Source: Escherichia coli (GTDB lineage: Bacteria; Pseudomonadota; Gammaproteobacteria; Enterobacterales; Enterobacteriaceae). From it: a stretch of DNA of 17,115 nt. This document shows positions 1 to 17,041 of the stretch, piece by piece. The position numbers and the translations under genes were made by a program. Numbering within the stretch: position 1 is the stretch's first letter; the number at the start of each line of letters is the position of its first letter. Where the stretch lies: the NCBI RefSeq assembly GCF_003334765.1, contig NZ_QOWT01000052.1, one strand, 5' to 3'. A model generated the notes under the pieces. That model saw nothing but the letters and a program-made list of their open reading frames with translations. It was not told where the DNA came from and did no database searches.

Positions 1-77
1 GTGGCGGCCTCAGTCCGGAACAATTTGAAAACAAGAACCTCGCTTAGGCCTGTGTCCATATTACGTGGGTAGGATCA
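1..77 (-). repeat. Left copy of a perfect 77-bp terminal inverted repeat; reverse complement equals 17039..17115. Likely the terminus of an IS3-family element whose body lies outside the window.
   Basis: Reverse complement of 1..77 is identical to 17039..17115; identity stops at 78 versus 17038. Terminus reads TGATCCTACCCAC...TGGACA, an IS3-family-like end. Confidence 0.6.
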
Positions 78-283
78 CAACGTCTTCACCGGCAGCAACA
101 GCAGTGAGGCTTCCTTCCTGGTATTGTTTCTTCCACTTAAACAACAGACTGGGCTGAATTCCATGCAAACGCGCCACGTGGGACACGGTCATGCCAGGCT
201 CCATAGTCTGTTGAATAATTGCGATTTTTTCCTGAGGTGTTTTTACGTTTACGCACCTCTTTTCCTAACAAAACGCCAGCCAT
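78..283 (-). pseudogene. IS2-like orfA (insC-like), frameshifted in an A-run near 235-245 and 3'-truncated by insertion
   Basis: N-terminal residues are in one frame and the HTH region in another; the ORF terminates in the inserted repeat (..EDVV-ILPT-stop). Confidence 0.5.
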
Positions 284-374: not shown

Positions 375-574
375 ACGAATAATCACACAGCAAATAATAA
401 TGACAAACAAGAATATAACTCAAAAAAATATCCAGAATGATGATATCCTGAATATTTTGCCACTACGAATTAATCATATGAACATAATAATTTGACAATA
501 ACCACGCAAAATGTTAAAGAATTACGAACCTATATAATAGACAAAATCGTAAAATAATAGGCTGGAGATATAAG

Positions 575-2023
575 ATGCTAAAGGGCTTTGATATAACAAA
601 AGCAAAAGCACAAGAAGTAGATACAGAACTACTTAAGCGTAGAATTTCCACTGGAAAAGCCATCGCATTCACAGGTGCAGGCTTCTCACTCGGAACAAAA
701 AATGTACTAGGCTCTACCCCCCCAATGGCTGGAGAGCTAGCTAAGAAACTCAGTTTATTATGTAATCTCGAAGAATCTGAAGATTTAATGTTTGCAGCAG
801 ACGTTGCACTTGAGTACGCAGATAATATTTCAGTATTAGACTTACTTAAAGATAATTACACACTAACATCTGTTTCAGAATGTCATGAAAAAATATGTAA
901 ACTACCCTGGAAAAAATTTTTCACAACAAATTATGATAACTCTATAGAACTTGCCTGTCTGAATATAGGTAAACGTATAGAATCAGTTGACTTATCTTAC
1001 AAACCAACAAATTTTTTAAAAAAAAATAATGTTTGCCTTCATATTAATGGAAAAATTGAAAGTGCTGAACCTGAAGATTTAACCTCCAAAATAAAATTAT
1101 CAGATTCATCATACCTGTCTCCAGATTCATTTGTAAATTCTGATTGGTACTATCACTTCAAAAAAGATCTTGAAACCGCAAGTGCTATCGTATTTATGGG
1201 ATACTCCATGTATGATATGGATGTAAAAAAATTCTTGTTCGAAAATCCAGAGTTACAAGAAAAAACTTACTTCGTTGTAAGAGATGGTGCCGATTTTAAA
1301 GAAATATTCACCCTAAGAAAATATGGACATGTTTTGCCAATTGGGGTGGACAGGTTTTCAGATTTAATGAAGGATGTTCAAAAGCAATCACATGAAGATG
1401 GTGTTATCTTCACAGAAACACTAGTCAAATATGAAGTTTTCGACACACAAACAGACTTTAGAGATATTGATAGTGAGCGATTATTTCTTTACGGTGATTA
1501 TGAAATAGAAAAACTCCATGACTCTATCAGAAGAATAGAAACCATTCCGTACTTTATTAAACGCGATATAATTCCTGTTTGTCTTAACAACATTAAAAAT
1601 AATAATAACATTATTATCACTGGCGATCTGGGAAATGGAAAGTCTATAGTTTTAGAAATGTTAGCTTATGAGTTAACTGTAAATGGTTTTCACACATATA
1701 TATTACGAAATAACGATGGTGATTATGTTTCTGATCTTGATCAAATTATCAAACATGAGGGGACGGCCGTAATTATCATTGATAACTGCTCTAATCATCC
1801 GGGTTTGATAAAACATATTTTTGAAGTTAAAGCTGATAACTTAATTTATGTTTTTGCTGACAGAAACTCAAACGACATAAAATTTAATATTTCTCTTGAT
1901 TTTATAGAGCACAATATAGACTTACTATCTAGTGACGAAATCGCAAGCGCAGTAAAAATCATAGATAATTTATCTACATGGCAAAAATTTTCCGCATTAT
2001 CCACTGAGAGAAAAAAAGATTAG
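575..2023 (+). CDS. SIR2-like (SIR2_2-type) domain fused to a P-loop NTPase domain; N-terminal 482-aa segment of a longer frameshifted gene
   Basis: SIR2_2-like motifs: FTGAGFS, TTNYD, LHINGK, VFMGYSMYDMD. Walker A GDLGNGKS and Walker B-like AVIIIDN. RBS GGAG about 8 nt upstream of the ATG. AT-rich codon usage. Confidence 0.7.
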   Translation: MLKGFDITKAKAQEVDTELLKRRISTGKAIAFTGAGFSLGTKNVLGSTPPMAGELAKKLSLLCNLEESEDLMFAADVALEYADNISVLDLLKDNYTLTSVSECHEKICKLPWKKFFTTNYDNSIELACLNIGKRIESVDLSYKPTNFLKKNNVCLHINGKIESAEPEDLTSKIKLSDSSYLSPDSFVNSDWYYHFKKDLETASAIVFMGYSMYDMDVKKFLFENPELQEKTYFVVRDGADFKEIFTLRKYGHVLPIGVDRFSDLMKDVQKQSHEDGVIFTETLVKYEVFDTQTDFRDIDSERLFLYGDYEIEKLHDSIRRIETIPYFIKRDIIPVCLNNIKNNNNIIITGDLGNGKSIVLEMLAYELTVNGFHTYILRNNDGDYVSDLDQIIKHEGTAVIIIDNCSNHPGLIKHIFEVKADNLIYVFADRNSNDIKFNISLDFIEHNIDLLSSDEIASAVKIIDNLSTWQKFSALSTERKKD

Positions 2024-2301
2024 TATATGAAAAATATGACGCACAGCTATCTCTATTGCTTCTGGGATTGATAAATAGTCCAAATATAAAAACAAAAATC
2101 AAACAACAAACCGATTTAATATATTCCAATCCAGATCATAAAAAGAGCGTCTTCTGCATTTGCATTTGTGAAGTCGCTAATGTAGAACCAACATCAAGTT
2201 TAGTATCAGAAATATCAGGAACTAATGCTATTTATCATACATCACTAAGAAACTCCCCCCCCATTCAATCAAATTTTCAAAGTAAATGGAGCAACTATTA
2301 A
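2008..2301 (+). other. Middle fragment of the SIR2/NTPase gene in the +1 frame between two homopolymer frameshifts
   Basis: This frame is open from 2008 immediately after the A7 run (2011..2017) and ends shortly after the C8 run (2255..2262). Confidence 0.4.
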
Positions 2302-3019
2302 ATCAAAATCAAGCATTCTGTCATTATCTTTACTAAACAATACCTTTAGCGATATTTATGTAAGAGATGTACTCCTTGAAATTGTTGAACGTACTGACTC
2401 AATAAAAGACCAGGATATTGAAATAAAAAAAATATTTAAAGCACTATTGAGATTTCATATAGTTGAAAGAATTTTACCGAAGAATCAATCTGCACTAGAC
2501 AGATATTATGAACAGTTAAAATATAGATGCACATGGTTAATGGATAGCCCTCACTATTGGGTTCAATATGCAATGTGTCGACTATCTTTTTCAGATTATA
2601 ATAGAGCACAAAATTACCTAACCAACGCTTATCAAAAAGCAGAAACAAAAAAAGGAAGTTATCATACTGATAACATTGACACTCAACAGGCTCGTCTATA
2701 TTTAAATCAGTGTTTAGATCATAACAACAGTTCTGAGTGTTATAAACTGTTCGATAAAGCACATGCTCTTCTTGTGAAACTCCCCAATGAAGGAAGAAAG
2801 TTTAGACAAGTTCTGTTATATAAAAAAGTTTTTGATTTAAAATACCAAAGTTTCAGTAAAAAAAACAAAACTGATTTTGAACAGGCATGTAAAAAATTAT
2901 TAGATCAGACAAAACCAGATAATGTTTATCCTATAAATACTAATATGGTAAGATTCATCACCTCTGCTGAAGAGGCATTAATTGAAATATTAAACACTAT
3001 TATGCTAGAGCGAACTTAA
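2264..3019 (+). CDS. C-terminal alpha-helical (possibly TPR-like) segment of the SIR2/NTPase gene; the frame is open from 2264 although the ORF caller starts at 2447
   Basis: Same frame as 575..2023, open from just after the C8 run to the stop at 3019, followed by a strong terminator hairpin. Confidence 0.55.
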   Translation, partial: FNQIFKVNGATIKSKSSILSLSLLNNTFSDIYVRDVLLEIVERTDSIKDQDIEIKKIFKALLRFHIVERILPKNQSALDRYYEQLKYRCTWLMDSPHYWVQYAMCRLSFSDYNRAQNYLTNAYQKAETKKGSYHTDNIDTQQARLYLNQCLDHNNSSECYKLFDKAHALLVKLPNEGRKFRQVLLYKKVFDLKYQSFSKKNKTDFEQACKKLLDQTKPDNVYPINTNMVRFITSAEEALIEILNTIMLERT

Positions 3020-3027
3020 CTGTAAAA

Positions 3028-3053
3028 AGCCACCTCCTGAGGAGGTGGCTTTT
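3028..3053. terminator. Rho-independent terminator hairpin, possibly bidirectional
   Basis: Perfect 10-bp stem AGCCACCTCC / GGAGGTGGCT with a 3-nt loop, followed by TTTT and preceded by AAAA. Confidence 0.65.
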
Positions 3054-3096
3054 CAGAATCCCCCCTATAAGGATGGCAAATGTCATATTCCATTTT

Positions 3097-3468
3097 CTAC
3101 TCTAGCAACTCCATCTGCTGTTCATGTGTTTGTTCCATCTTTTCCTGGTACCTCACATATCGTCTGATAATTTCTTCGTTCCCCCCTACCGTATCAACAA
3201 AGTAACCCCTCGACCAAAAATGGTTTCCCCATAACTTCTTCCCGATATGCAGGAATCGATTGTAGAGTCTGATTGCACTGCGGTCTTTCAGCTGCCCCAT
3301 CAGAGTAGATATTGAGATTTTTGGTAGCACTATTACGACAAGATGCATATGATCTGGCTGTACATTTAACTCCAGAGCCTCGCAATCTTTTATTCCGCAA
3401 AGAATAAAGATGGTTCTGTACAGCTCCTTGCCCAATTTATCCCTCAGAATCCTAAAGCGGTACTTTAG
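3097..3468 (-). CDS. tnpA: IS200/IS605-family Y1 (HUH) transposase TnpA; N-terminus apparently disrupted (in-frame stop upstream of the conserved CKYHIV, no ATG)
   Basis: Minus-strand translation CKYHIVWTLKYR...DHMHLVV (HxH)...FWSRGYFVDTVG (catalytic Y region) matches IS200 TnpA. The ORF caller starts at an internal Met (3435). Confidence 0.7.
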   Translation of the reverse strand, partial: LKYRFRILRDKLGKELYRTIFILCGIKDCEALELNVQPDHMHLVVIVLPKISISTLMGQLKDRSAIRLYNRFLHIGKKLWGNHFWSRGYFVDTVGGNEEIIRRYVRYQEKMEQTHEQQMELLE

Positions 3469-3917
3469 CGTCCAGACTATGTGATATTTGCAACACTAAT
3501 ATACATGTGATGAACTTCTGTAAAGCCCTATATCAGTTTGTCTCCTTTTACTTGTGGTGTGTAAGCAGATATATTCAGACATGGACATTCTTCAGGCTAT
3601 AACCTTACAGGAACAATCACCACCTCCACAAGAGGTGAGGTTTTATTTTACCTGTCACTCCCAAAAGAGTATATTAATACATGAATAATGTCTTAGCATT
3701 CTATTTGGCATTCATATTAATTTAACTTCTGCACCCCTAATATTTCATTACTCTCTTTTGAATGTATGCCTGATACAGTATATGATGTTAAAAACTTAAT
3801 TGACGTTGTGTAAATAGACCCGTTTTGGTTACATACATTTTTTGAGATTCCGGAAAGAATTACCCTGTCCCAAAATCAATACAGTGCTAAATCAGAGATC
3901 TTTGTCTTTCCTGAGAC

Positions 3918-4327: not shown

Positions 4328-5111
<784 letters not shown>

Positions 5112-5115
<4 letters not shown>

Positions 5116-5780
5116 AACAGCTCCTCATAGGTACTCAGTGGTCGATGTTCCACCTGACTGACCTGCTGCCAGAGCGGGGCGTGATGCTCCGGCACTGTCT
5201 GCCAGCCAGACGATGCCGGACAGAGGCGATGTGAGGCCACCAGTTTCTCATTACTGTAGATCCGCAACTCGTCATCCAGCGATATTCGTATCGATACTGG
5301 CTGACCACACAGCGCTTCGGGAACGCTGTAACGATTACCACCAACCTCGATATAGCTGTCCCAGGACACATGGCGGATGTCGAAGTAACTGGTATCGAAG
5401 TCCGTATCCGGTAACGGCTGCAGATGTTCCTGCTCCAGCGCGAAGCGCTGTTCCGGCGTTTCTTTGAACTGGCGAAGCTCCCGTTTGTCAGCCACATCGG
5501 CTATCCATTGCTCCAGTAGTTGATTAACATGAGTGAAGCTGTCGAACCTGCGGTACCGGACGAAGAAGTTCTCCTTGAGGTATTTCACCATCCGCTCAAC
5601 CTTACCTTTTGTTCTGGCCCTGCGTGGACGGCATGCCCGTGGCAGGAAGTTATAGTGGTCGGCCAGCAACAGGAATCCGGAGTTGAACACGACTTTCCCG
5701 TTGTTATTCTTCAGCACCGCAGCCTTCTGGTTATCAACCAGCACCGTTTTCACACAACCACCGAATTTGATCCCTGAAAA
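5112..5780 (-). pseudogene. istA: IS21-family istA, 5'-truncated (C-terminal part only)
   Basis: Translation ..GIKFGGCVKTVLVDNQKAAVLKNNNGKVVFN... continues in frame upstream of the called start to a stop near 5780. Confidence 0.7.
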
Positions 5781-6018
5781 CTGTCAGCGCTGCGAGGACA
5801 TGGCTGCTTAAAAAAAGAACAAATGGTAGTGTCCGCTATTGCCAGTACACCTCAGATTCTGGGGATAACTGCGAAAAGAATATGTGCCAGGAAAGTCGGC
5901 TCCCGGGAAAAAGACCGCTGGCGGCGCAGCTGCTGGATACGAAAGCTGAGCTGAAAGGATCCCGGGAGGACGTCCGTAAACTTCAGTCCCTGGCCCGTCA
6001 TGACGGGAAGGTGAAAAA

Positions 6019-6660
6019 GTGAATGCGGACACCTGGACCCGCCTGCAGGCCTTCCGACATGCTCTGGAGCTGACTTCCTGTGAGGCTTCTCTCACCGCCG
6101 GGTATGATCACCTGAAGGATTTCCCGGCCGGTTGCAGCGAGCTGGCCAGCCAGACGCTGACTGATTATCTGACGGAAGACGGCAGCAACCTGTACTCCTG
6201 TATTGTCGGTATGCAGTGGGATAATGGTCCTGGCAGATACGGCCACGTCATTGCCGCCCCTGCCAGGGACTATATCGACCTGACCCTTGATCAGTTTCCA
6301 GGCTATCATAACCGGATTGTGGCAGAGCCCGTTGAGTCCGGCGGACAGCTCGCGGCAGACCTCAACAGGGAGCCTGCCATCAGTACAGCTGATGGAATAG
6401 TGGCCAGCGCATCAGATAAGGTTAATTACATTACTGAACAGAAAAATCGCCAGCCAATGGTGATCATTACAGAATGTTACAAACTGATCAGAATGACGGC
6501 AAGATTTATACCAATGTGCCAGTCATCTCAACTCTTCCAGCACCAGATATTCCCTCGCTTATTTATCATTTCAGACGTTGGCTCCTGCAGTTTGTCCAGG
6601 AACACCTTAGATCGTTTAGCTACTGACTGGAAGGTGACACTGTCCGTCCTGTCGCTATAG
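6019..6660 (+). CDS. Hypothetical protein; the C-terminal third may be spurious read-through
   Basis: 213-aa ORF with a GTG start overlapping the stop of a small upstream ORF; GC-rich backbone-like codon usage; no recognisable motifs. Confidence 0.35.
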   Translation: MNADTWTRLQAFRHALELTSCEASLTAGYDHLKDFPAGCSELASQTLTDYLTEDGSNLYSCIVGMQWDNGPGRYGHVIAAPARDYIDLTLDQFPGYHNRIVAEPVESGGQLAADLNREPAISTADGIVASASDKVNYITEQKNRQPMVIITECYKLIRMTARFIPMCQSSQLFQHQIFPRLFIISDVGSCSLSRNTLDRLATDWKVTLSVLSL

Positions 6661-7239
6661 GGCTTGATATAAACCAGGCAGGCAAGGGATCTGGTTAACA
6701 CCTTTCCTTCCATAAAGTGTTTGAAGATCCAGAGATACGTATCCACAAGCTCCAGCCCTGTACTCAGTGTCCCCGACTGGAAGACCTGCGGTTCAGCTGG
6801 TATTTCCGTTACATCCATGACCGGTGTCTGCGCAGCAGTGCCTGTCATCAGGATATTCATGGAGCCAGTCTGTATGCGCCTCTGGCGTTGAAACAAACAT
6901 ATGAAGTGTATTTCGGATATGACTGTACGCTCAGGAAGTACGGCAGATTCCGTCAAAAATTACCTGTAAAGACAGACTTCAGAAAAAACGGTGCTCGCCG
7001 CAGACCGGTGACCGGGCGAAGCCCGCGAACCGGCGAGGAAGCGCAATGGATCTGTAATCACAGTGAGCAGGTACGCCCTGAAGCCTTCATAATCGGTAGT
7101 GTATGCTGTTTTTCCGGAATGATTTATCCACATATCCAGAGGCCCGATCCAGTAAATAGATCCATGAATGATCAATAAAGGATCCATTAAAGATCCCCAT
7201 ATCGCTACAAACCTTGTCACTCATGGGCCGGGACCACGA

Positions 7240-7345
7240 TCACATAAGCTGTGGCATGTTACTGATAAACTGTAATATGCTAATGATAAGCTGTATTCAG
7301 TAATGCATATACTGAAGTAAGCTAATGACATAAACTATGGTCAGT
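7240..7345. repeat. Iteron-like repeats upstream of repA (RepFIB-type origin repeats)
   Basis: Repeated ATAAGCTGT / ATAAACTGTA-type motifs, at least five copies. Confidence 0.5.
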
Positions 7346-7499
7346 ACGCCAGACTCTGTTGTTAAATACAGACTGCAGGTTTTTCTTCAGTCAGTTAGCG
7401 GGGCTCTGACACACGATTTGCTGTTTATTCTTTTACTGTCCACAGGCAGGAGGCTTTCTGGAAAACGAAAATTCAGACATCAAAAAACTGTTCGGCGAG

Positions 7500-8477
7500 G
7501 TGGATAAGTCGTCCGGTGAGCTGGTGACACTGACACCAAACAATAACAACACCGTACAACCTGTGGCGCTGATGCGTCTGGGCGTCTTTGTACCGACCCT
7601 TAAGTCACTGAAGAACAGTAAAAAAAATACTCTGTCACGCACCGATGCCACGGAAGAACTGACGCGTCTTTCCCTGGCCCGTGCAGAAGGATTCGATAAG
7701 GTTGAGATCACCGGCCCCCGGCTGGATATGGATAACGATTTCAAGACCTGGGTGGGGATCATTCATTCCTTTGCCCGCCATAACGTGATTGGTGACAAAG
7801 TTGAACTGCCTTTTGTCGAGTTTGCAAAACTGTGTGGTATACCCTCAAGCCAGTCATCACGCAGGCTGCGTGAGCGCATCAGCCCTTCCCTGAAACGCAT
7901 TGCCGGTACCGTGATCTCCTTTTCCCGCACCGATGAGAAGCACACCCGGGAATACATCACCCATCTGGTACAGTCAGCCTACTACGATACTGAACGGGAT
8001 ATTGTTCAGTTACAGGCTGATCCCCGCCTTTTTGAACTGTACCAGTTTGACAGAAAGGTCCTTCTTCAGCTTAAGGCGATTAATGCCCTGAAGCGACGGG
8101 AGTCCGCCCAGGCACTTTACACCTTTATAGAGAGCCTGCCCCGGGATCCGGCACCGGTATCGCTGGCGCGGCTGCGTGCACGCCTCAATCTGAAGTCTCC
8201 TGTATTTTCCCAGAACCAGACGGTCAGACGGGCAATGGAGCAGTTGCGCGAGATTGGATATCTTGATTACACGGAGATCCAGCGGGGGCGGACAAAACTC
8301 TTCTGCATTCACTACCGGCGTCCCCGGTTAAAAGCACCGAATGATGAGAGTAAGGAAAATCCGTTGCCACCTTCACCTGCGGAAAAAGTCAGTCCGGAGA
8401 TGGCGGAGAAGCTTGCCCTGCTTGAAAAACTGGGCATCACGCTGGATGACCTGGAAAAACTCTTCAAATCCCGCTGA
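7500..8477 (+). CDS. repA: Plasmid replication initiator RepA, RepFIB-type
   Basis: 325-aa ORF beginning [30 protein letters not shown]..., recalled as IncFIB RepA; flanked on both sides by iteron clusters; GTG start. Confidence 0.8.
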
Positions 8478-8478
8478 A

Positions 8479-8747
8479 CATAAACTGTAGTCAGTGAAGA
8501 GTGCTCCTTTACTGACTACAGCTTATATTATCAGGTGCAGTGAGTGGTCTGCTCACTGCAGTTTATATTCAGTTTCCTGCAGTGCTGCCTGTGGCTGAGC
8601 TGCCATCTGCCTGTCCCTTACGTGAGTCACCCCGTAACCTGATGCTGAGGCATTTCTCCCTTTATAAAACATGGTTTACTCACTACAGCTTATCTACCTG
8701 CTCCAGCTTATGTTATGTCTGTTCTGCTGACCACTGCTTATATAAGG
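8479..8747. repeat. Iteron-like repeats downstream of repA
   Basis: Repeated ACTACAGCTTAT / CTGCAGTTTATATT / CCACTGCTTATATA motifs in both orientations. Confidence 0.5.
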
Positions 8748-8755
8748 AAGTGCCG

Positions 8756-9496
8756 TTACTTCAGGGGAGGCAGTGTACGCAGGATCTCCGCAGCATCCCG
8801 CCCGTCACCTGTGAAAGGCACTGCCAGCGTGGCAGCCATATCCAGTGCAAACACTCTGGTATAAACCTCCATAGAACGTGGATCCCTGTGACCAGCCAGT
8901 GCCTGGATGACTTTCCGGGGCTGGCGGTGATAGAGCATGTGCATGATATAGCTGTGCCGGAAGGTGTGTGGTGTGACCGGAATCGAAAAGTGCACCCCGT
9001 CAGCTTCGGCCCGCTTCACTGCCTGTTTCAGCCAGTTCCGCATCGTTTCATCCGTCACAGCCCATAACGGTGCACGGCGCCGGGGCCGGGTGGTGATCAT
9101 CCAGCTCTCCATCTGCCTGACATAGCTTATATCCGTCAGCGGGACCAGGCGGACTTCATCTTTTGGAGGGCGCCCGCGTCGCGCACGCACTTTTTCGGAC
9201 AGGATCCGCACAAACGGTCTTACTCCATCCAGGTCAAATGATTCCGGTGTCAGCATCCGGGCTTCGCCAATACGCATTCCGGTATTCCAGAGGGTGGCGA
9301 ACAGCATATGGTGACGCTGATCCGGCATATAGAAAAGAAGGGCACTCACTTCCGGGGCCAGCAGGTAGGCCGGTGTGGCCCCCGTGGAAGTGGCCATTCT
9401 TCTCAGGGAGAGCGCTGTTGCAAAATCCACCCCTGGCGCAATGGGTAACAGGGAGACGCGTTCTGGTGAATTCTGCAGGGGAATGACATTGTTCAT
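8756..9496 (-). CDS. int: Tyrosine site-specific recombinase (phage-integrase family)
   Basis: 246 aa with C-terminal [12 protein letters not shown]...[16 protein letters not shown], matching the R-H-R-Y catalytic region (LGH...Y motif). Confidence 0.8.
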
Positions 9497-9712
9497 GAGT
9501 TATTTTTCACGTAGCACACGCACTGTTTATGGATACAGTTATTCTGACCTGAACGCACGGATCCTTCCACGACAATAAATCGCAGCGCGCGGATCCTTTT
9601 GTTTGCTTATCACGCATTATTGCGGGTAAAACCAAATACGTAAAGGCGCGTTTTGCCGCAGGGATCCTGTCTTAAGCCAGTCATGGCGCGGGCTGAGAGC
9701 TGGTTTGCCGTT

Positions 9713-9858
9713 TTTGGGAGAATTGGGGTAATGCCAGGACAAACAGGATCGAACCAGAAGGGGGAGGGTGCAGAGAAGGAGAGGAAGCGCTACGTGAATT
9801 CTGACCTGGTACACCCCTGTAACCCTGTCTGTTTCCACGTAGCGCAATGCGGTTACTG
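9713..9858 (+). repeat. Repeat A: about 146-bp element, diverged direct copy of repeat B; contains a 10-bp inverted repeat GCGCTACGTG (9787..9796) / CACGTAGCGC (9836..9845)
   Basis: Start TTTGGGAGAATTGGGGTAAT and the core CGCTACGTGAATTCTGACCTGGTACA are near-identical to repeat B. Confidence 0.5.
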
Positions 9859-9859
9859 A

Positions 9860-10109
9860 CTACTGCCAGTTGAGATGACGCCCGGCATCCTGATGCTGAC
9901 TTAAAATACGGATAATAATAATATCTGTATCAGTCTGAATAAAATAAAGCATATGCCGTTCAACGGGCAGTGCGAAGATATCTTCCACCAGTTCAGGCCG
10001 GGGAGTGCCGATATTATTATCACTCATAACCTGAAAAATGCCGGCACCCGTAATACCAGATATCCTCCAGATCCTGACTGGCTTTAGGTGTGAGTTTAAC
10101 GGTTTTCAC
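9860..10109 (-). pseudogene. parE: ParE/RelE-family toxin, apparently frameshifted near 10050..10055
   Basis: GTG start overlaps the parD stop; N-terminal frame reads VKTVKLTPKASQDLEDIWYY.. then stop; a second frame reads ..PELVEDIFALPVERHMLYFIQTDTDIIIIRILSQHQDAGRHL, a ParE-like C-terminus. No ORF of 60 aa or more was called here. Confidence 0.5.
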
Positions 10110-10362
10110 CGGAAGCCCTCGTACCAGCCTTAACTTTTTTCAGGAACGCGTCCTTTTCCCACGCCACAGGTTCGCCGCTGCTCAGGCCTTCTGCCAGTAA
10201 ATCCCGCAGGGCCTGGAGACGTGACTCTGCCTGTTTCTCGCGCAGGAGACGAAGTGACTCGCGAATCACTTCACTCTGAGTACGATAATCACCTGATTCT
10301 ATGAGAGATTCAATGAATTCACGGAGTTCATCTCCGAGATCCACTGTCATTGTTCTGGCCAT
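10096..10362 (-). CDS. parD: ParD-family (ribbon-helix-helix) antitoxin
   Basis: 88 aa, MARTMTVDLGDELREFIESLIESGDYRTQSEVIRESLRLLREKQ...; RBS GAGG upstream; operon with the downstream toxin. Confidence 0.75.
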   Translation of the reverse strand: MARTMTVDLGDELREFIESLIESGDYRTQSEVIRESLRLLREKQAESRLQALRDLLAEGLSSGEPVAWEKDAFLKKVKAGTRASGENR

Positions 10363-10376
10363 ATTAAAGCCTCAAT

Positions 10377-10399
10377 ATTGTAAGTTTAAATCTTACAAT
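10377..10399. promoter_or_regulatory. Palindromic putative operator ATTGTAAG-N7-CTTACAAT, 15 bp upstream of the parD start
   Basis: 8-bp inverted arms around an AT-rich spacer, overlapping a candidate -10 on the minus strand. Confidence 0.45.
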
Positions 10400-10439
10400 C
10401 AGTTTATTCGATACTCAAGGGCGAGTCCAGTACTGAACA

Positions 10440-10577
10440 TTTGGGAGAAATGGGGTAATACCCAAGATAGACCAAAAAGGGAAGGGAGAAGTAAAGAAGA
10501 AGGTTCGCTACGTAAATTCTGACTTGGTACAAACCTCTATAAAAAAGAAATTTTTCATGTAACACATTTGGGTACTG
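10440..10577 (+). repeat. Repeat B: about 138-bp diverged copy of repeat A, flanked by direct 9-bp CCCAGTACT (10427..10435 and 10592..10600)
   Basis: Alignable to repeat A over its whole length at roughly three-quarters identity by eye. Confidence 0.5.
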
Positions 10578-10641
10578 CCTCCCAGTAAAGGGAGACAGCA
10601 TCCCAGTACTATAATTGTACTATATAATATAATGTAGGTGA

Positions 10642-12579
10642 TTAAAATAAATTATCTAATCCGAGCAAACTTTCTTTTTCCTTTTTTATCATGTTGAGAT
10701 GATTTAGTGATTTTAAATAAATATAATTATACATATCTTCAACCAAGTTTTCTAATACTAGGAAAACCCTGTTTTTTACACCTGCCTGTGTTAATAATTT
10801 ATCTATAAGCATACTGTTTTTATCGTTTATGATTCCATCAGATTTTATTTTATCGAGGCCTGAAATTATCTTTAAACATGAAGGTGTCGTAATTGCATTG
10901 TCAAAAATAATGTCATGCAAAGAGTATGTTGATAATTTTTCTATATCAGAGAAGGCGAGGACATTCAGAATGTTATCATTAAATGGACCGATTGATACAT
11001 CGTGCATAGATTCAAGTTTATTGTTATTTGATTTTCTATCTTTACGTAGTTCTTTATTTTGAACAATAACTCTCGCATCACCGATTAGTTTATAATAGAA
11101 ATTTTCAGCTAATGTGCTCGCTGAAAAATTCTCTTCTTTAAAACCAATCTCTTGCATTAACGGAATGATTAACTCTTCCGTTGTATTTTCCATGTCTATG
11201 TGGTTTAAAAAAACCGCAGTATTCAGCATAATAGAGTTATTTTTTAGTTCCTTTACCAAACTCAGCAATATCTTACTTTTTATACTAGATGCGCTGTTTT
11301 TAATGAATTCAGCCGCATGATACTCTTGAATTGTTTTATGGACAAATGTAAATATTTCGGCGCCATCTCTTCTGATCAAACCTGTGACATCGATATAGTC
11401 ATTAATAAGATCTTCGGCAAAAGTATCAGAATAATTGAGCCCCAAAACTTTAAATGATTTTTTAGTGATATTTTTTAAGTTATCCCATGATAATTGGGAT
11501 GAACTTTTTAGCGATATGTAACATAAAGCACAAAATATTTCTTTTGATTCACTAATTGAGAGGTTTGTTTTTCTATGCCTTTTATAGAAATTTTTTGTTT
11601 TATCATGGCCTTCAAATAGTATATTAAATATTCTATTGTAAAATTCTCTTGCATTTTTAGGCATTGAATCGAGATGCTTTTCACAAACACAAAGCAGTAC
11701 AGCAAGAATTGGAGTATTAATTGAAGAAAGCAATTGTTTATTTTTCTTAAGCGCTGCTATAAGTTGATCAGCTGACTCCTTTGGTAAAAAATTACCTATT
11801 ATGGAAAAAACATCTTTCTCTGTTAGTGGTTCAACATGATAATTATTTATTCCTGCAGTAGTGCATATTTCTGTTCCAGGCCGAGACGTTGATATTAATT
11901 GAGTCTGAAAAGAATCATTTAAATGCAATATTTCTTTTAAAATAGTTTCTCTAATATCAGGGGATATTTCATCAAAACCATCTAGTAGTAATATAATTTT
12001 TTTACTTTTCAGTAACCCCTTTAGGTCAGCATTAGTGCAGTTTAATTCGAGAGTAGTTAATGTTTTTATTAAACTATCTTGTATTGAATTGTTTTCCAAG
12101 TTTCTAAGATCAAAAAAGAATGGTATTTTATTAATTTTTGAATTATTACTTAAAATAGCTAGGAATATTTTTCTTAAAATTGTTGTTTTCCCTTGTCCAG
12201 CAGCGCCAATTATATTTAATATATTTTCATTTTGAATACAAAAATCATTATTAATTAAAAGGTCTTCATTTGTACGGTTGTTTTTTACCGTGAGTGGATG
12301 ATAAAATTCATCTATAAAAGCATCATCATTTAAATTATATAAAGTTCTTACTGACAAGTATCTTTTAATACATAAATCAAAATAATGAGTGAAAGTATCT
12401 TTCTTCAATATTTGTTCAATAAGTACTTTCGCATTATCAGTTCCATGTTTCCACTTTTGTGAAACTACTGAATTTAACAATTCGTAAGTTGATTTTGTTA
12501 AAGATTCACTAAAAGTTTCTACCATTTTATTGGTGGCCACAATACCCAGTGCAGCAGCAGATATTGTTAACGGTTCCAT
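10642..12579 (-). CDS. NACHT-domain NTPase (bacterial NACHT / STAND family), 645 aa
   Basis: Walker A GAAGQGKTT; NACHT-type Walker B ILLLDGFDE; sensor-1 ISTSRP; RBS AAGGAG 6 nt upstream of the ATG; AT-rich. Confidence 0.85.
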   Translation of the reverse strand: MEPLTISAAALGIVATNKMVETFSESLTKSTYELLNSVVSQKWKHGTDNAKVLIEQILKKDTFTHYFDLCIKRYLSVRTLYNLNDDAFIDEFYHPLTVKNNRTNEDLLINNDFCIQNENILNIIGAAGQGKTTILRKIFLAILSNNSKINKIPFFFDLRNLENNSIQDSLIKTLTTLELNCTNADLKGLLKSKKIILLLDGFDEISPDIRETILKEILHLNDSFQTQLISTSRPGTEICTTAGINNYHVEPLTEKDVFSIIGNFLPKESADQLIAALKKNKQLLSSINTPILAVLLCVCEKHLDSMPKNAREFYNRIFNILFEGHDKTKNFYKRHRKTNLSISESKEIFCALCYISLKSSSQLSWDNLKNITKKSFKVLGLNYSDTFAEDLINDYIDVTGLIRRDGAEIFTFVHKTIQEYHAAEFIKNSASSIKSKILLSLVKELKNNSIMLNTAVFLNHIDMENTTEELIIPLMQEIGFKEENFSASTLAENFYYKLIGDARVIVQNKELRKDRKSNNNKLESMHDVSIGPFNDNILNVLAFSDIEKLSTYSLHDIIFDNAITTPSCLKIISGLDKIKSDGIINDKNSMLIDKLLTQAGVKNRVFLVLENLVEDMYNYIYLKSLNHLNMIKKEKESLLGLDNLF

Positions 12580-12867
12580 TTTTGCTCCTTCAAAAAATTA
12601 TAAAGTGACTGTCTAAATTCATTTAGAATAAAAAGGATAATTACTGATTCTTGATATGGAAGTTATAAAGTGGTTCATATTAAGAAATTCCAAAACCTAA
12701 AGTGTTTGTAACTATATAAAAAATAGATAATAAATCAAGGTTGTTGACATAAAATTTGACACGACGAACTGAAACTCAATGTGGACTAAGGAAAGCACTT
12801 ACCCTATTGTAAAGCATTGATTTAAAATGTTATTTTTTATATTTAACATAATCTTTGTTATGCGCAC

Positions 12868-13570
12868 TAAGGGTGTAACAGCAAAGTTGTAATGTCCGCC
12901 TTGGGCTAAGTTAAGATGTCCGGCGTGTATAATCAAGTAAGGATTACCATGACGGCTCTCGCAGCGGAGTTTTTCACTTTGGATGAAGTTAACCGACTCA
13001 AGATTATTCAGGACGTCATCGACCGGCGTCTGACAACACAGATGGCAGCGCAGCGGCTTGGTATCTCCGACCGCCAGTGCCGTCGTCTGCTTGCGCGTTA
13101 TCGTGAAGATGGTCCGCTTGGCATGACCAGCCGCGTGTCGAAATCACTCACTGTGCAGTACGACAAAGTGCTTTACCTCATTGAAGACAATGAGTTCAGT
13201 CGTCGGGCGATTGGTAAATACATTGATGTCTGGCATTACCCTGACGGACATAAAGAGCTCCGGCTTAATGGCGTATCAATTCCCTACTCCACCTATGACA
13301 AACTGTCTGAAATCGATCAGGGTGCCATTGTGGACAATAAACGTCTTGGGCGTGCGCTGGAGATGGCGCAACTTGTGCAGGCCGAACGGGATAATAACCG
13401 GTCACAATCAGTGCCATCCGGTGACGGCCCTTCACGCAGGCGCAAAGCCCCTACGACGAAGAAATCCCAGCGTTCTTTGGACCAGGACGATATGTTCAAT
13501 GCACTTGTAAAACTTCAGACACGAGCTGAGGAGATTTTTGGTGAACGCAACCAAAAATGATGTTTTGATA
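12868..13570 (+). mobile_element. ISNCY/IS481-like IS remnant with an internally deleted transposase gene
   Basis: Left-end sequence AAGGGTGTA... is shared with the full copy at about 15675; the gene lacks the catalytic core. Confidence 0.5.
12949..13560 (+). pseudogene. Internally deleted DDE transposase derivative: N-terminal HTH fused in frame to the C-terminal domain (about 280 aa of catalytic core missing)
   Basis: Residues ..NRLKIIQDVIDRRL..GPLGM and ..LTVQYDKVLYLIEDNEFSRRAIGKYIDVWHYPDGHKELRLNG.. align to both ends of the 415-aa transposase at 15794..17041. Extended -10 TGTATAAT and RBS AAGGA precede the ATG at 12949. Confidence 0.6.
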
Positions 13571-13611: not shown

Positions 13612-14658
13612 ATGATAACGTTTTCTATGGATGAAAGTGGCTATACGGGTTATGACTTACTCCACAAAGAGCAAAAATTCCAAGGCGCGTCATCAATATT
13701 AATAAACCATGATGACGCCAGTCGTCTGATAAAAGAATATTTCCCCAAACTTCAAGCCGATGAATTGAAGTACAGCTCGCTGAAAAGAAGAGATTCCAAC
13801 CGCAAGCCATTATTTGAATTGCAAAAGCATCTCTTATCTAATTACCCATGTATAACATGCGTAGGTGATAAACGCTTTTTACTAATTCTTATGTTCATCG
13901 ATTATGCTGTTGAACCATTCTATTATGATTTTGGGATTAATCTTTATGAGGATGGCGGTAACTTCTCAATGGCATCAATGGTGTATTACGTTGGACCAGC
14001 GTATTATGGCTCTGCCTTTGATGATGTTCTGCTTCAGTTTCAAAATGCTATGAAAGAAAAAACATTAGATTCAGTGAGTTTGCTAATAAGCAAAATAAGG
14101 AGGCTTGACTGGCAAAGGTTAAAAGAGTTTTTTGGTCCTTTGGCATTTAACCACCCAGATTGTATTGATGCCATCATGACTGATGGAATTAGCACTGATG
14201 CCTCATTTACTATTTTAAATGCATTAATTTCTCGCACGGAAATGATGTCCTCTGGAGAGTATGCAATTGAGCATGATCGTTCTAAAAATCTGCTAACTTA
14301 CAATGAACGCCTTAACTTTTTGATCAATTGTGATAAGGAAGGAGAGTTTAAACATTCCGAGATAGCAACTATCTCATTCCCACTAAACCTTAAAAAAGTC
14401 TATCAAATTGATTCGAAAGAAAGCCCAAGCGTGCAATTGTGTGATGTTCTTATAGGTGCATGTATTGAATCAGTTTATCAATTAATGGACTCTAAGGTAC
14501 TCAATCAAAATTCCGTTCTTTCACTTTACCAAGATAGCCAGTTAATACATTTCATACCTGATATAGATTTTGAAGGACAGAAAAAATTTAGGAAAGGCAG
14601 TCAAAGTGAGGAGTATCTTACGTTTATTCAAAATGAAATCTACTCTAGTAAACTTTAA
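13612..14658 (+). CDS. DUF3800-like protein (uncharacterised), 348 aa
   Basis: N-terminal FSMDESGYTG (DESG motif) and C-terminal VQLCDVLIGA (QxxD-like motif), as recalled for DUF3800; RBS GGAG; AT-rich. Confidence 0.6.
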   Translation: MITFSMDESGYTGYDLLHKEQKFQGASSILINHDDASRLIKEYFPKLQADELKYSSLKRRDSNRKPLFELQKHLLSNYPCITCVGDKRFLLILMFIDYAVEPFYYDFGINLYEDGGNFSMASMVYYVGPAYYGSAFDDVLLQFQNAMKEKTLDSVSLLISKIRRLDWQRLKEFFGPLAFNHPDCIDAIMTDGISTDASFTILNALISRTEMMSSGEYAIEHDRSKNLLTYNERLNFLINCDKEGEFKHSEIATISFPLNLKKVYQIDSKESPSVQLCDVLIGACIESVYQLMDSKVLNQNSVLSLYQDSQLIHFIPDIDFEGQKKFRKGSQSEEYLTFIQNEIYSSKL

Positions 14659-14893: not shown

Positions 14894-15538
14894 TCATACC
14901 TGTTTTCTTAGAAGCTGGTCAATATAGCTGATCGTGTGAAATTCACGTTCGATTTTCATACAAACATTTGGCAACTGTTCGATAAGAAAGTTTTCATCGA
15001 AGCGATCTAGAAGGTACGTGAGGGTAATAGTATCAATTTTATTCAATTTTCTATGTAAAACTGAAGAACGCCTCACAAAATCGTTTTTCCTTAACTCTTG
15101 AATAACATCGATCAAAATAGGGTTGAATAATTCTTTTTCTGGAAAGGACTTGTAAATTTTCGAATCAATAATTTGAGAAGGATCTAAGCGGTTAATTAAA
15201 TTATTACTGCTAACTATGTAGCACTTATCAATCATCAAACCTTCCGTTTTGCAACGGTCTAAATCACAAGCGTTTATTATACATTCTTTAAATACAACAT
15301 GTCGCAGGCTCCCGCCTCTAAAAAGGACTCCTCTTAATAAAGAGGATTGGAAAAGACTGCCAGTAAAGTTACACCATTTCAATGAAGCACCAATAAAAGA
15401 CGTGTTCGTGAATTTTGACTGAAAAAAATTTGAATGGTAACTGTGTGTCTTATTGAAATTTTTATTTATAAAATTCCTACTCGCAACATCACGATTATTG
15501 TAGCTGAAAGCATTTTTGCTCTTCTTATTCCTTGCCAT
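14894..15538 (-). CDS. Pentapeptide-repeat protein: N-terminal pentapeptide-repeat region plus a C-terminal domain of unknown function, 214 aa
   Basis: Residues about 20..95 show a 5-residue periodicity (RNFIN KNFNK .. SNFFQ SKFTN TSFIG ASLKW CNFTG SLFQS SLLRG VLFRG GSLRH VVFKE) with F/L at the centre position. Confidence 0.6.
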   Translation of the reverse strand: MARNKKSKNAFSYNNRDVASRNFINKNFNKTHSYHSNFFQSKFTNTSFIGASLKWCNFTGSLFQSSLLRGVLFRGGSLRHVVFKECIINACDLDRCKTEGLMIDKCYIVSSNNLINRLDPSQIIDSKIYKSFPEKELFNPILIDVIQELRKNDFVRRSSVLHRKLNKIDTITLTYLLDRFDENFLIEQLPNVCMKIEREFHTISYIDQLLRKQV

Positions 15539-15674: not shown

Positions 15675-17038
15675 AAAGGGTGTAGAGGCTCAATGCTAAT
15701 GTCTATTTGTGGCTCATTGGAATGTCCAGGCTATAGTTTCTCAGATCCCTATGTCTAGACAACGACTCACTTTTTCCTGATGAGGAGTTTTCTATGGCTA
15801 TAAATGACGCCGGAATGTTCACCGTGAAAGAAATCAATCGCCTCAAAATCCTTCAGGATGTCATCGATCGCAATATCCGTCCTGGACAGGCTGCCGAAAT
15901 GCTGGTCATCACGCCACGTCATTGCAGCCGTCTGCTCAAACGTTATCGCCAGTATGGGCCGCTTGGCATGAACAACCAGAGTCGTGGCCGCACTGGTAAC
16001 CGTCTGTTGCCAGCGTCACTGACAGATCAGGCACTCAGTATAATCCGGGAGCACTACCGTGATTTTGGCCCCACGCTAGCGCGGGAAAAGCTGGAGGAAG
16101 TTCACGGTCTGGTCCTTGGAAAGGAAACCATCCGACGTCTCATGATAAAGGCCGGACTCTGGATTCCCCGCAGACAACGCGCACCGAAAATTCATCAGCC
16201 TCGTTACCGGCGTCCTTGTACTGGCGAGCTGATACAAATTGATGGCTGCGACCACCACTGGTTTGAAAACCGGGGTCGACCCTGTACTGCCCTGGTCTAT
16301 GTTGACGATGCCACCAGTCGCCTGATGCACCTGCTGTTTGTGAAATCTGAGTCCACATTTACCTATTTTGAAGCTACACGTGGCTATATCGAGAAATACG
16401 GTAAACCGATGATCCTCTACAGCGATAAAGCCAGCATATTCAGAGTCAATAATAAGCACGCCACCACCGGCCCCGGCGAAACCCAGTTTGCCAGGGCCAT
16501 GCGCTGCCTTAATATTACTCCTTTGTGTGCTGAAACCAGCCAGGCAAAAGGCCGCGTTGAACGTGCTCATTTGACACTTCAGGACCGACTCGTTAAGGAG
16601 CTCAGGCTTAAGGGGATCTGTACAATAGAAGCGGCCAATGCATTTGCAGAAGAATACATGGCGGATTATAACCGTCGCTTTGCCAAAGAACCCTTGCATG
16701 ATTTTAACGCGCACCGGCCGCTGGCATTAGACGATGACCTTGATGCAGAATTTACCTGGCGAGAGCCTCGCCGGGTATCAAAAAATCTGACTGTACAATA
16801 CGATAAAATGCTCTATCTGATTGAGGACAACGAGTACAGTCGAAGAGCCATCGGCAAGTATATTGATGTCTGGCATTATCCTGACGGACATAAGGAGCTG
16901 CGACTAAATGGCGTGCTGCTGCCCTACTCCACCTATGACCGGCTTTCTGAGGTTGATCCCGTCGCCATTGTAGATAACAAGAGACTTGGCCATGTGTTGG
17001 ATGTTGCCCGTCAGGTCCAGAGAAAACGGGACAATAAT
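15675..17038 (+). mobile_element. ISNCY/IS481-like insertion sequence, 3'-truncated by insertion of the terminal-repeat element
   Basis: Left-end homology with the 12868 copy; the transposase reading frame is cut at 17038/17039. Confidence 0.6.
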
Positions 17039-17041
17039 TGA
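15794..17041 (+). CDS. DDE transposase (integrase-core type, ISNCY/IS481-like), 415 aa, C-terminally truncated by about 45 aa relative to the homolog at 12949..13560
   Basis: N-terminal HTH, central core (..QIDGCDHHWF..YVDDATSRLM..) and C-terminal DVWHYPDGHKELRLNG; RBS GAGGAG. The stop codon TGA is supplied by the first bases of the 77-bp repeat. Confidence 0.8.
   Translation: MAINDAGMFTVKEINRLKILQDVIDRNIRPGQAAEMLVITPRHCSRLLKRYRQYGPLGMNNQSRGRTGNRLLPASLTDQALSIIREHYRDFGPTLAREKLEEVHGLVLGKETIRRLMIKAGLWIPRRQRAPKIHQPRYRRPCTGELIQIDGCDHHWFENRGRPCTALVYVDDATSRLMHLLFVKSESTFTYFEATRGYIEKYGKPMILYSDKASIFRVNNKHATTGPGETQFARAMRCLNITPLCAETSQAKGRVERAHLTLQDRLVKELRLKGICTIEAANAFAEEYMADYNRRFAKEPLHDFNAHRPLALDDDLDAEFTWREPRRVSKNLTVQYDKMLYLIEDNEYSRRAIGKYIDVWHYPDGHKELRLNGVLLPYSTYDRLSEVDPVAIVDNKRLGHVLDVARQVQRKRDNN

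Follow-up and report, generated by a model that had tools for sequence, protein, structure and literature searches.

Known SIR2 defence proteins

EfAvs5 of Escherichia fergusonii (PDB 9JAP) is an AVAST type 5 protein for which anti-phage defence has been shown (Wang et al., Nat Commun 2025, PMC11897194). NAD+ drops upon T7 infection, with T7 gp1.7 as the trigger, and defence is abolished by each of N141A, K379A, D426A and deletion of the sensor (PMC11897194). The winged-helix and sensor domains are required both for dimer/filament contacts and for defence (PMC11897194). Phage-triggered NAD+ hydrolysis and protection have so far been demonstrated for EfAvs5 and PaAvs5 alone.

The other Avs5 clades (PaAvs5-1, PaAvs5-2, PaAvs5-3 and EcAvs5; PDB 9NC9) combine a Sir2 domain (PF13289), nSTAND3 (PF20720) and a C-terminal helical repeat. 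Identity between Avs5 clades is ~20%, and a likeness of Avs5 to human SAMD9 has been reported (Muralidharan et al., Mol Cell 2026, PMC12931631). An N-terminal SIR2 NADase effector that depletes NAD+ upon phage sensing is also found in Thoeris ThsA and in DSR2 (defence-associated sirtuin 2). However, both lack the STAND P-loop NTPase found in the protein described here, and their oligomers differ as well. DSR2 binds the tail tube through HEAT-like repeats, and ThsA has a SLOG domain that binds a ThsB-made signal.

We analysed a 17,115-nt stretch of an Escherichia coli contig (NZ_QOWT01000052.1; hereafter the window), in which an initial annotation had proposed a candidate single-gene antiphage system of the SIR2-STAND or Avs5-like type. 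We conclude with high confidence that window positions 575-3019 represent a frameshift-inactivated AVAST type 5 (Avs5, SIR2-STAND) gene of the EfAvs5-like clade, carried by an E. coli IncFIB plasmid within an AT-rich insertion that is flanked by IS sequences. The proposed affiliation was thus borne out, as the nearest relative among characterised proteins is EfAvs5, which depletes NAD+ and defends as a single gene. The Avs5 family is already defined, with two cryo-EM filament structures, and in this respect the locus has little discovery value.

Gene structure, domains and kinship with EfAvs5

The gene (575-3019, plus strand, 2,445 nt) is split over three frame segments. Segment 1 (575-2023, frame 0) is a 482-aa ORF encoding the SIR2 effector, a linker/FISNA-like region, the NBD and most of the helical domain. 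Its ATG at 575 is also the start assigned by PGAP in intact copies, and a Shine-Dalgarno-like GGAG (564-567, plus strand), read from the sequence, lies 7 nt 5' of it. The frame drops to -1 at an A7 run (2011-2017; A8 in intact alleles), and segment 1 ends with TAG two codons past this run. Segment 2 (2017-2262, frame -1) corresponds to aa 482-563 of the intact protein, comprising the end of the helical domain and the start of the winged-helix domain. At a C8 run (2255-2262; C7 in every other copy examined) the original frame is regained, and segment 3 (2261-3019, frame 0) covers aa 563-814, i.e., the remaining winged-helix domain and the all-helical C-terminal sensor. As a free ORF, segment 2 can be read only at 2056-2301 from a TTG start (81 aa), and the earliest usable start in segment 3 is the TTG at 2447, giving a 190-aa ORF. 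The window gene has no uninterrupted reading frame, and stops occur in all frames within 2021-2301.

Repair of both homopolymers (+1 A at A7, -1 C at C8) yielded 2,445 nt encoding 814 aa plus a stop codon, with zero internal stops, matching the earlier estimate of about 815 aa from two further segments. The repaired protein differs by three substitutions from an intact protein of other E. coli IncF plasmids, which RefSeq annotates merely as 'SIR2 family protein'. Compared with the intact copies in NZ_AP028871.1 and NZ_CP010345.1, the window has one A fewer (A8 to A7) and one C more (C7 to C8); these two indels and a few SNPs are the sole differences from the intact 814-aa plasmid alleles. One such intact allele is WP_041521554.1 from pECC-1470_100. 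The three segments form a single gene in every intact homologue.

All six motifs that had been read in the 482-aa ORF were found in place on the plus strand: GAGFS (aa 34-38, nt 674-688), TTNYD (aa 117-121, nt 923-937), LHING (aa 155-159, nt 1037-1051), FMGYSMYDMD (aa 207-216, nt 1193-1222), GDLGNGKS (aa 350-357, nt 1622-1645) and IIIDN (aa 400-404, nt 1772-1786). Profile searches of the reconstructed protein, which the initial annotation had suggested as a check, matched both a SIR2 and an NTPase domain, at scores well beyond chance. SIR2_2 (PF13289) was detected at 914-1264 (aa 114-230; Pfam, 1.7e-9), within a whole SIR2 fold spanning approximately aa 17-265. The NAD-pocket residues A35, T118, N119, Y120, N158, Y180 and S211 correspond to A41, T140, N141, Y142, N180, Y202 and S233 of EfAvs5 and are invariant in 45 sequences. 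The STAND NTPase core at 1559-1825 (aa 329-417) matched nSTAND3 (PF20720; 1.3e-6) and nSTAND_NTPase5 (7e-7). It is accompanied by Walker A GNGKS (1631-1645; K356/S357, equivalent to EfAvs5 K379/S380), Walker B IIID (1772-1783; D403, equivalent to D426) and the sensor arginine R430 (1862-1864; equivalent to R453), all conserved across 45 family members. An AF2 model of the repaired protein (pLDDT 85, pTM 0.81) was entirely helical from about aa 593 to 813, with pLDDT mostly >85. The helical C-terminus was therefore borne out in the model, whereas its suggested TPR-like character is unconfirmed: Pfam returned no repeat profile (TPR, Sel1, PPR or other) for this region. The intact protein is a SIR2 domain, a STAND NTPase and a helical C-terminal sensor in one polypeptide.

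A phmmer search against the PDB retrieved EfAvs5 (9jap_A) with E 2.5e-139, collinear across aa 16-782, and the EfAvs5 sensor aligned to the C-terminal helical region as far as aa 782. Identity by BLASTP was 35% over 800 columns. EfAvs5 was likewise the best Foldseek match of the AF2 model (4e-50), along with the AVAST5 filament 9nc9 (8e-16). Both proteins have the order SIR2, NOD (NBD-HD-WHD) and helical sensor in a single polypeptide. Their NAD-pocket residues are identical, including the Asn that both have in LHxNG where canonical sirtuins have His, as are the Walker A K/S, Walker B D, sensor Arg and adenine-contacting Ile. Every NAD-pocket or ATP-binding residue that was mutated in EfAvs5 is kept in the window protein. 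The initial annotation regarded the protein as possibly a compact or distinct family on account of its length. However, native EfAvs5 has 849 aa and more than 40 homologues span 812-846 aa, so that 814 aa is ordinary for the clade, in which 814-830 aa is normal.

The two proteins nevertheless differ at 65% of residues and in length, and most dimer, filament and bundle contact residues of EfAvs5 are changed in the window protein (T262D, H362N, D164Y, R185G, I303T, E307V, H622D, K623I). Only K219, K523 and K763 are identical among 15 mapped EfAvs5 interface residues, with E404 conservatively replaced by D381. The basic C-terminal tail of EfAvs5 is missing, and its 'TTR' reads 'ADR'. With the interface residues mostly unconserved and no basic tail, the filament mechanism of EfAvs5 may not carry over. 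Alternatively, the interfaces may have co-evolved, and the divergence would then concern the assembly mode rather than family membership. EfAvs5 is located on a phage-inducible chromosomal island, whereas the window gene lies on an IncF plasmid and is frameshifted.

Structural similarity extended to the other Avs5 clades (9nc9 against the window protein: Foldseek E 8e-16, probability 1.0). However, identity to these clades was a mere 14-16%, and 9nc9 was reached by neither phmmer nor the family profile search. Such values are in line with the ~20% reported between clades and would place the window protein with EfAvs5 instead. As judged from identity levels, it probably belongs to clade 3 of PMC12931631. 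Human SAMD9 (PDB 9ZJW; Foldseek E 9e-12, TMq 0.37) also matched in fold over the SIR2-like, STAND and helical-array regions; this eukaryotic protein has several domains, other effector chemistry and only 10% identity. None of the RefSeq accessions of the window protein turned up in the supplementary material of PMC12931631, and our literature search found no experimental study of the window protein or of relatives >50% identical. Neighbouring genes of the homologues were unrelated among three contexts, namely E. coli plasmids, a Vibrio cholerae chromosome and a Klebsiella aerogenes prophage. Stand-alone homologues in such unrelated contexts fit a one-gene system.

Frameshift alleles and the state of the window copy

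By homology with EfAvs5, the intact 814-aa protein would sense a phage protein through its C-terminal helical domain. Oligomerisation, driven by the STAND module in its ATP-bound state (Walker A K356, Walker B D403, R430), would then gather the N-terminal SIR2 domains, leading to NAD+ hydrolysis in the N119 pocket and stalling phage replication. In the window, the A8-to-A7 slip is predicted to stop translation at codon 482, behind the NBD and the larger part of the helical domain. The C7-to-C8 slip would cut the remainder once more. Together, the two slips would leave the winged-helix and sensor domains unjoined to the SIR2-NBD part. In EfAvs5 numbering the truncation falls at residue 510, before the winged-helix residues K552, H622 and K623 and before the sensor. 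Because the winged-helix and sensor domains needed by EfAvs5 are lost, the window copy is most likely a non-functional pseudogene.

The initial annotation treated the frameshifts as things to be corrected in a live candidate system. For the A7 run, this view could not be maintained. The exact 482-aa product is present on 157 public contigs (NCBI, ENA, JGI and Logan assemblies), showing that A7 is a real, widespread and most likely inactivating allele rather than a private error. This knockout is found in about one third of the E. coli contigs that were counted. The 482-aa product is accompanied by downstream ORFs of 320 aa (58 contigs), 288 aa (127 contigs) or 284 aa (86 contigs). In contrast, the C8 state was found in none of 13 other copies. 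Exact look-up of the 81-aa ORF that it creates gave no record, and look-up of the 190-aa ORF returned alleles frameshifted at the 2425 tract, none of them that of the window. The extra C may have arisen by private mutation or through a sequencing error. Other copies carry frameshifts at further tracts (1018, 2425, 2647 and 2890), and this variety of homopolymer frameshifts fits ongoing decay.

It should be noted that both changes sit in homopolymers and are opposite in sign, so the 2,445-nt length is kept, as would be seen if the actual plasmid carried an intact gene and the record had acquired both indels through sequencing or assembly errors. The absence of C8 and of its 81-aa ORF from all other copies points the same way, and such errors do occur in the dataset, since the plasmid record CP061263.1 is full of homopolymer deletions. 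However, the 482-aa product on 157 contigs is made by the A7 state only, and the window shares both A7 and the linked SNP 1061A with two independent complete plasmids. Moreover, the remainder of the window matches an independent record at 100.0% identity over 12.6 kb, indicating that its sequence is not generally error-prone. We therefore regard errors at both sites as quite improbable. Membership of another SIR2 defence family (DSR1/DSR2, Thoeris ThsA, SIR2-HerA or Kongming KomC) has almost no chance of being correct. The only PADLOC matches were to ThsA SIR2 models (2.4e-9), and ThsA, KomC and DSR2 were also returned by sequence and fold searches (SIR2 fold matches to DSR2/ThsA: Foldseek 1e-10 to 1e-7). 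However, these matches were SIR2-only or had 12-17% identity with E values of 1e-7 to 1e-10, compared with the end-to-end match to EfAvs5 at 2.5e-139. The Walker A/B STAND NTPase missing from DSR2 and ThsA is present here, Pfam gave no SLOG match, and no TIR/ThsB, HerA or KomA/B partner adjoins the gene.

The A7 allele could also be leaky or switchable, with -1 ribosomal frameshifting, transcriptional slippage or reversible tract length restoring some full-length Avs5 and thereby tuning or phase-varying a costly NADase. The frame-0 letters at the shift site are AGA AAA AAA GAT TAG, and a -1 slip on the A_AAA_AAA heptamer would recreate the wild-type sequence ...ERKKRLVYE... exactly. On at least 58 contigs the A7 change stands alone and leaves a 320-aa downstream ORF intact, and tracts 1018 and 2010 were each shifted on different SNP backgrounds, suggesting recurrent slippage. 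However, the RNA 3' of A7 has no stimulatory structure (MFE -6 kcal/mol, z +1.05; 174 of 200 shuffles fold equally well), and the window allele would additionally need a +1 shift at C8. Second and third downstream frameshifts pile up in copies (C8 in the window, +A at 2890 on 127 contigs, and two copies with three frameshifts), which argues that the downstream frame is not under selection. Shortening A8 to A7 reduces slippage rather than increasing it. We consider a leaky or switchable A7 allele highly unlikely. There is a very slim chance that the many independent homopolymer +/-1 changes as a group (1018, 2010, 2255, 2425, 2647, 2890) switch off or throttle a costly F-plasmid NADase receptor rather than reflecting plain decay; -1 slippage at A7 could in that case still supply a little full-length Avs5. 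A two-polypeptide 'split Avs5' (482 aa plus 320 aa) was rejected: the second ORF has a TTG start with no SD-like sequence upstream, its product would miss 12 residues of a helix, and the downstream frames have decayed in many copies.

As a frameshift-inactivated Avs5 gene, the locus and its A7 knockout, together with the other frameshift alleles, provide a natural case in which an NADase defence gene has been lost repeatedly, which bears on the plasmid cost of such systems. Defence finders that rely on intact ORFs or on PADLOC v2 models will miss the gene. A PADLOC-DB v2.0.0 scan of the intact protein gave no Avs5 call and just the weak ThsA SIR2 matches. The EfAvs5 control was equally unrecognised, so the PADLOC negative carries no weight. 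No NCBIfam family was assigned to the intact protein.

Plasmid setting and distribution

No Rfam match passed the gathering threshold in the whole window, and a tblastn search of 50,697 phage records with the protein gave no match. Between 250 and 3200, a promoter and terminator scan returned 18 promoter-like sites against 14.6 expected and no terminator, an uninformative outcome.

The EfAvs5-like subclade is present on E. coli IncF plasmids from humans and livestock, as well as in Enterobacter, Klebsiella, Yersinia, Pectobacterium and Vibrio. It is 35% identical to EfAvs5, with divergent oligomer interfaces and sensor. Its trigger specificity could differ from that of EfAvs5.

The GC content of the gene is 31.5%, compared with 51.6% at window positions 4500-10400, and the surrounding backbone is that of an IncFIB plasmid, in agreement with the AT-rich island on a plasmid backbone described previously. 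The IS remnants described as its flanks were also identified. On the left edge lies an IS3-family transposase (orfA) remnant (61-283, minus strand) containing an HTH_Tnp_1-like ORF (61-204), which is annotated as 'transposase, frameshifted, incomplete' in pANT_425 and AF58 plasmid 2. The right flank contains IS21 remnants and an IS200/IS605 tnpA (Y1 transposase; 3097-3480, minus strand) that lies 78 nt past the stop codon and adjoins the gene in all plasmid copies examined.

Reading frames and setting of the gene

The 482-aa ORF at window positions 575-2023 (+), with a GGAG 7 nt upstream of its ATG, contained every SIR2 and P-loop motif claimed for it in the initial annotation, namely GAGFS (aa 34-38), TTNYD (aa 117-121), LHING (aa 155-159), FMGYSMYDMD (aa 207-216), GDLGNGKS (aa 350-357), and IIIDN (aa 400-404). 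Three-frame translation of 1900-3060 showed that the coding signal moved to the -1 frame at a run of seven A (A7, 2011-2017) and returned to the original frame at a run of eight C (C8, 2255-2262), ending at the stop at 3017-3019.

Megablast matches to the 2.7-kb region were confined to 8-9 of 72,556 PLSDB plasmids and 9 of 5,426 complete E. coli genomes, in each case on IncF plasmids. In NZ_AP028871.1, NZ_CP010345.1, NZ_CP145100.1, CP061230.1, and NZ_CP041421.1, the region is annotated as one 'SIR2 family protein' of 814 aa. When aligned with the intact copies, the window had an A-run one A shorter, a C-run one C longer, and a handful of SNPs. Mending both indels gave 2,445 nt (814 codons plus stop) with no internal stops, and the repaired protein differed from the intact one (P0001) by three substitutions. 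The three frame segments are therefore one gene of nearly the length first proposed (about 815 aa), not separate unrelated genes.

The gene region had a GC content of 31.5%, versus 51.6% for 4500-10400. It was flanked by an IS3-family transposase remnant on the left (61-283, -) and by an IS200/IS605 tnpA (3097-3480, -) followed by IS21 remnants on the right, and the remainder of the window was IncFIB plasmid backbone (repB, integrase, parD), in agreement with the AT-rich island between IS remnants described initially. In every E. coli copy examined (loci L001-L009 and L011-L015), 78 nt separated the end of the Avs5 gene from the tnpA downstream, which was followed by IS21 remnants; the two genes appear to travel as one unit.

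Domain architecture and relation to EfAvs5

The repaired protein matched Pfam SIR2_2 (aa 114-230, 1.7e-9) and, over aa 329-417, nSTAND_NTPase5 (7e-7) and nSTAND3 (1.3e-6). An AlphaFold2 model built on a 45-sequence family alignment was confident (pLDDT 85, pTM 0.81) and comprised a Rossmann-type SIR2 domain, then an alpha/beta NBD and, from ~453 to 813, helices only, bearing out the proposed order of SIR2, P-loop NTPase, and helical C-terminus. A PDB sequence search matched EfAvs5, an AVAST type 5 protein (9jap_A), collinearly over aa 16-782 (E 2.5e-139), with 35% identity over 800 columns by BLASTP, so that the 'SIR2-STAND / Avs5-like' call was upheld end to end. Among the best-ranked Foldseek matches of the model in the PDB were EfAvs5 (9JAP; E 4e-50, 34% identity), a second AVAST5 filament (9nc9; 8e-16, 14-16%), SAMD9 (9e-12, 10%), DSR2 (about 1e-10, 12-14%), and ThsA (1e-8 to 1e-7, 14-17%). 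Against 9JAP, the model had a low global TM-score (0.39), probably because a closed monomer prediction was compared with an open filament subunit.

Avs5 is defined by Sir2 (PF13289), nSTAND3 (PF20720), and C-terminal helical repeats, and has four clades sharing ~20% identity (PMC12931631). Architecture, catalytic residues, and full-length homology place the gene, as judged from its sequence, in Avs5. The protein probably belongs with EfAvs5 in clade 3 of that study, since it is much closer to EfAvs5 than to 9nc9 (~15% identity). Identification as DSR2, ThsA, KomC, or SIR2-HerA was rejected, as the matches were restricted to the SIR2 domain and the STAND module or required partners were absent. 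PADLOC v2 and NCBIfam scans returned no name for the protein; the PADLOC result is uninformative because EfAvs5 was missed as well. The impression of an unusually short protein from a compact or distinct family did not hold, as EfAvs5 has a native length of 849 aa (chain numbering minus a 20-residue tag) and homologues in Enterobacter, Klebsiella, Yersinia, Pectobacterium, Vibrio, and Shewanella have 812-846 aa.

EfAvs5 from E. fergusonii protects E. coli against T7, with a drop in NAD+ after infection, and T7 gp1.7 can trigger the system (PMC11897194). Its NADase activity occurs solely in filament bundles, and defence is lost with N141A (SIR2), with K379A or D426A (Walker A/B), when the C-terminal sensor is deleted, or when the NBD-WHD interfaces of dimer and filament are mutated (PMC11897194). 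Mapped through the 45-sequence alignment, EfAvs5 A41, T140/N141/Y142, N180, Y202, and S233 correspond to A35, T118/N119/Y120, N158, Y180, and S211 here, and K379/S380, D426, and R453 to K356/S357, D403, and R430; I351 corresponds to I328, identical in the pairwise mapping. All 45 family members shared the NAD-pocket residues, the lysine of Walker A (K356), and the sensor arginine (R430), whereas the S357 position was Ser/Thr and the D403 position Asp/Glu. However, 65% of residues differ from EfAvs5, including the majority of its oligomer-interface residues, and the window protein lacks the basic C-terminal tail that EfAvs5 needs for bundling. Unlike EfAvs5, the window gene is plasmid-borne and its copy is broken by frameshifts.

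Frameshifts and the state of the window copy

The initial annotation treated the frameshifts as something to be corrected. However, the exact 482-aa product (…ERKKD*), whose sole possible source is the A7 state, was found on 157 contigs (NCBI, ENA, JGI, Logan), and A7 with the linked SNP 1061A was common to two independent complete plasmids, pANT_425 (Brazil) and AF58 plasmid 2 (UK). The A-run frameshift is not peculiar to the window record. Downstream partner ORFs of 320 aa (A7 only), 288 aa (A7 plus an additional A at 2890), and 284 aa were found on 58, 127, and 86 contigs, respectively. Intact 814-aa E. coli alleles summed to ~380 contigs; as a rough estimate covering named alleles only, the A7 knockout made up roughly 30% of the contigs tallied. 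The C8 insertion was absent from all 13 other aligned copies, and exact look-up found no record of the 81-aa ORF that it produces, so C8 is a sequencing error or else a second mutation private to this copy. The window sequence is not poor overall, since elsewhere 12.6 kb of it matched an independent plasmid at 100.0% identity.

Whatever C8 is, the A7 state by itself breaks the gene. Translation ends at codon 482, which maps to EfAvs5 residue 510, upstream of the winged-helix residues (EfAvs5 K552, H622, K623) and the sensor. Because EfAvs5 requires both winged helix and sensor for assembly and defence (PMC11897194), we read the window locus as a probable pseudogene.

Public copies (L003, L004, L006, L011-L015) carried six or more distinct ±1 frameshifts in homopolymers, with a maximum of three in any one copy, including A9 at 1018, A8 at 2425, A7 at 2647, and A6 at 2890 (gene-equivalent window positions). 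The shifts at 1018 and 2010 each occurred on two different SNP backgrounds, demonstrating recurrent slippage there; the pattern suggests that the downstream frame is unmaintained once the gene is broken. Leaky or phase-variable full-length expression was also considered. The shift site in frame 0 (window 2009-2023, +) reads ACT GAG AGA AAA AAA GAT TAG, with TAG two codons past A_AAA_AAA. This heptamer is of the classic slippery type for -1 shifts, and slipping by -1 would recreate the wild-type sequence (…ERKKRLVYE…) exactly. No stimulatory structure was found 3' of the heptamer (MFE -6 kcal/mol, z +1.05), and the window allele would need a further shift at C8. Such expression, conceivable for the A7-only allele, is unlikely. 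The window gene appears to be an inactivated member of the established Avs5 kind, the population of recurrent homopolymer knockouts being its only mildly unusual aspect.

In CP061263.1 (L007, pSTEC1018_5), ~25 single-base homopolymer deletions fell within 2.7 kb compared with all other copies. This record looks like an unpolished long-read assembly, and its missing annotation of the gene is accordingly taken as an artefact.

Homologue neighbourhoods and other cargo

A 73% identical V. cholerae homologue (L016, 6001-8460) stood alone, inserted between abrB-like and spoU genes in a housekeeping setting, and an 83% identical K. aerogenes homologue (L018, 6001-8445) lay in a prophage, with dinI/S24-peptidase genes on one side and tail-fibre genes on the other. 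A stand-alone gene in unrelated neighbourhoods fits a one-gene system. Upstream of the intact Avs5 gene, pECC-1470_100 (L002, 1019-4891) carried a 712-aa AAA family ATPase, a VapC toxin, and a hypothetical protein, none of them in the window, which may be more accessory or defence cargo of the same hotspot. An 86% identical 814-aa homologue (P0044), filed as a 'hypothetical protein' of the myxozoan animal Thelohanellus kitauei, almost certainly stems from bacterial DNA contaminating a eukaryotic assembly.

A second AT-rich block of the window (25-31% GC, about 10500-12600) contained a 645-aa NACHT-domain ORF (10642-12579, -), annotated as 'NACHT domain-containing protein' in CP088797.1. It partially matched the PADLOC candidate system PDC-S60 (1.1e-14) and, far below cut-off, NCBIfam EruA (6e-9); this ORF is intact and may be another STAND-type defence gene of the plasmid, alongside the Avs5 gene. 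AT-rich genes for a 348-aa DUF3800 protein (13612-14658, +) and a 214-aa pentapeptide-repeat protein (14894-15538, -; weak Qnr-like match, 6.5e-5) may, together with the NACHT gene, make up a small islet of accessory or defence genes. These two genes were bracketed by a full 415-aa ISNCY-family transposase (15794-17041, +; NF033594, 1e-143) and a fragment with the same N-terminus (12916-13560, +).
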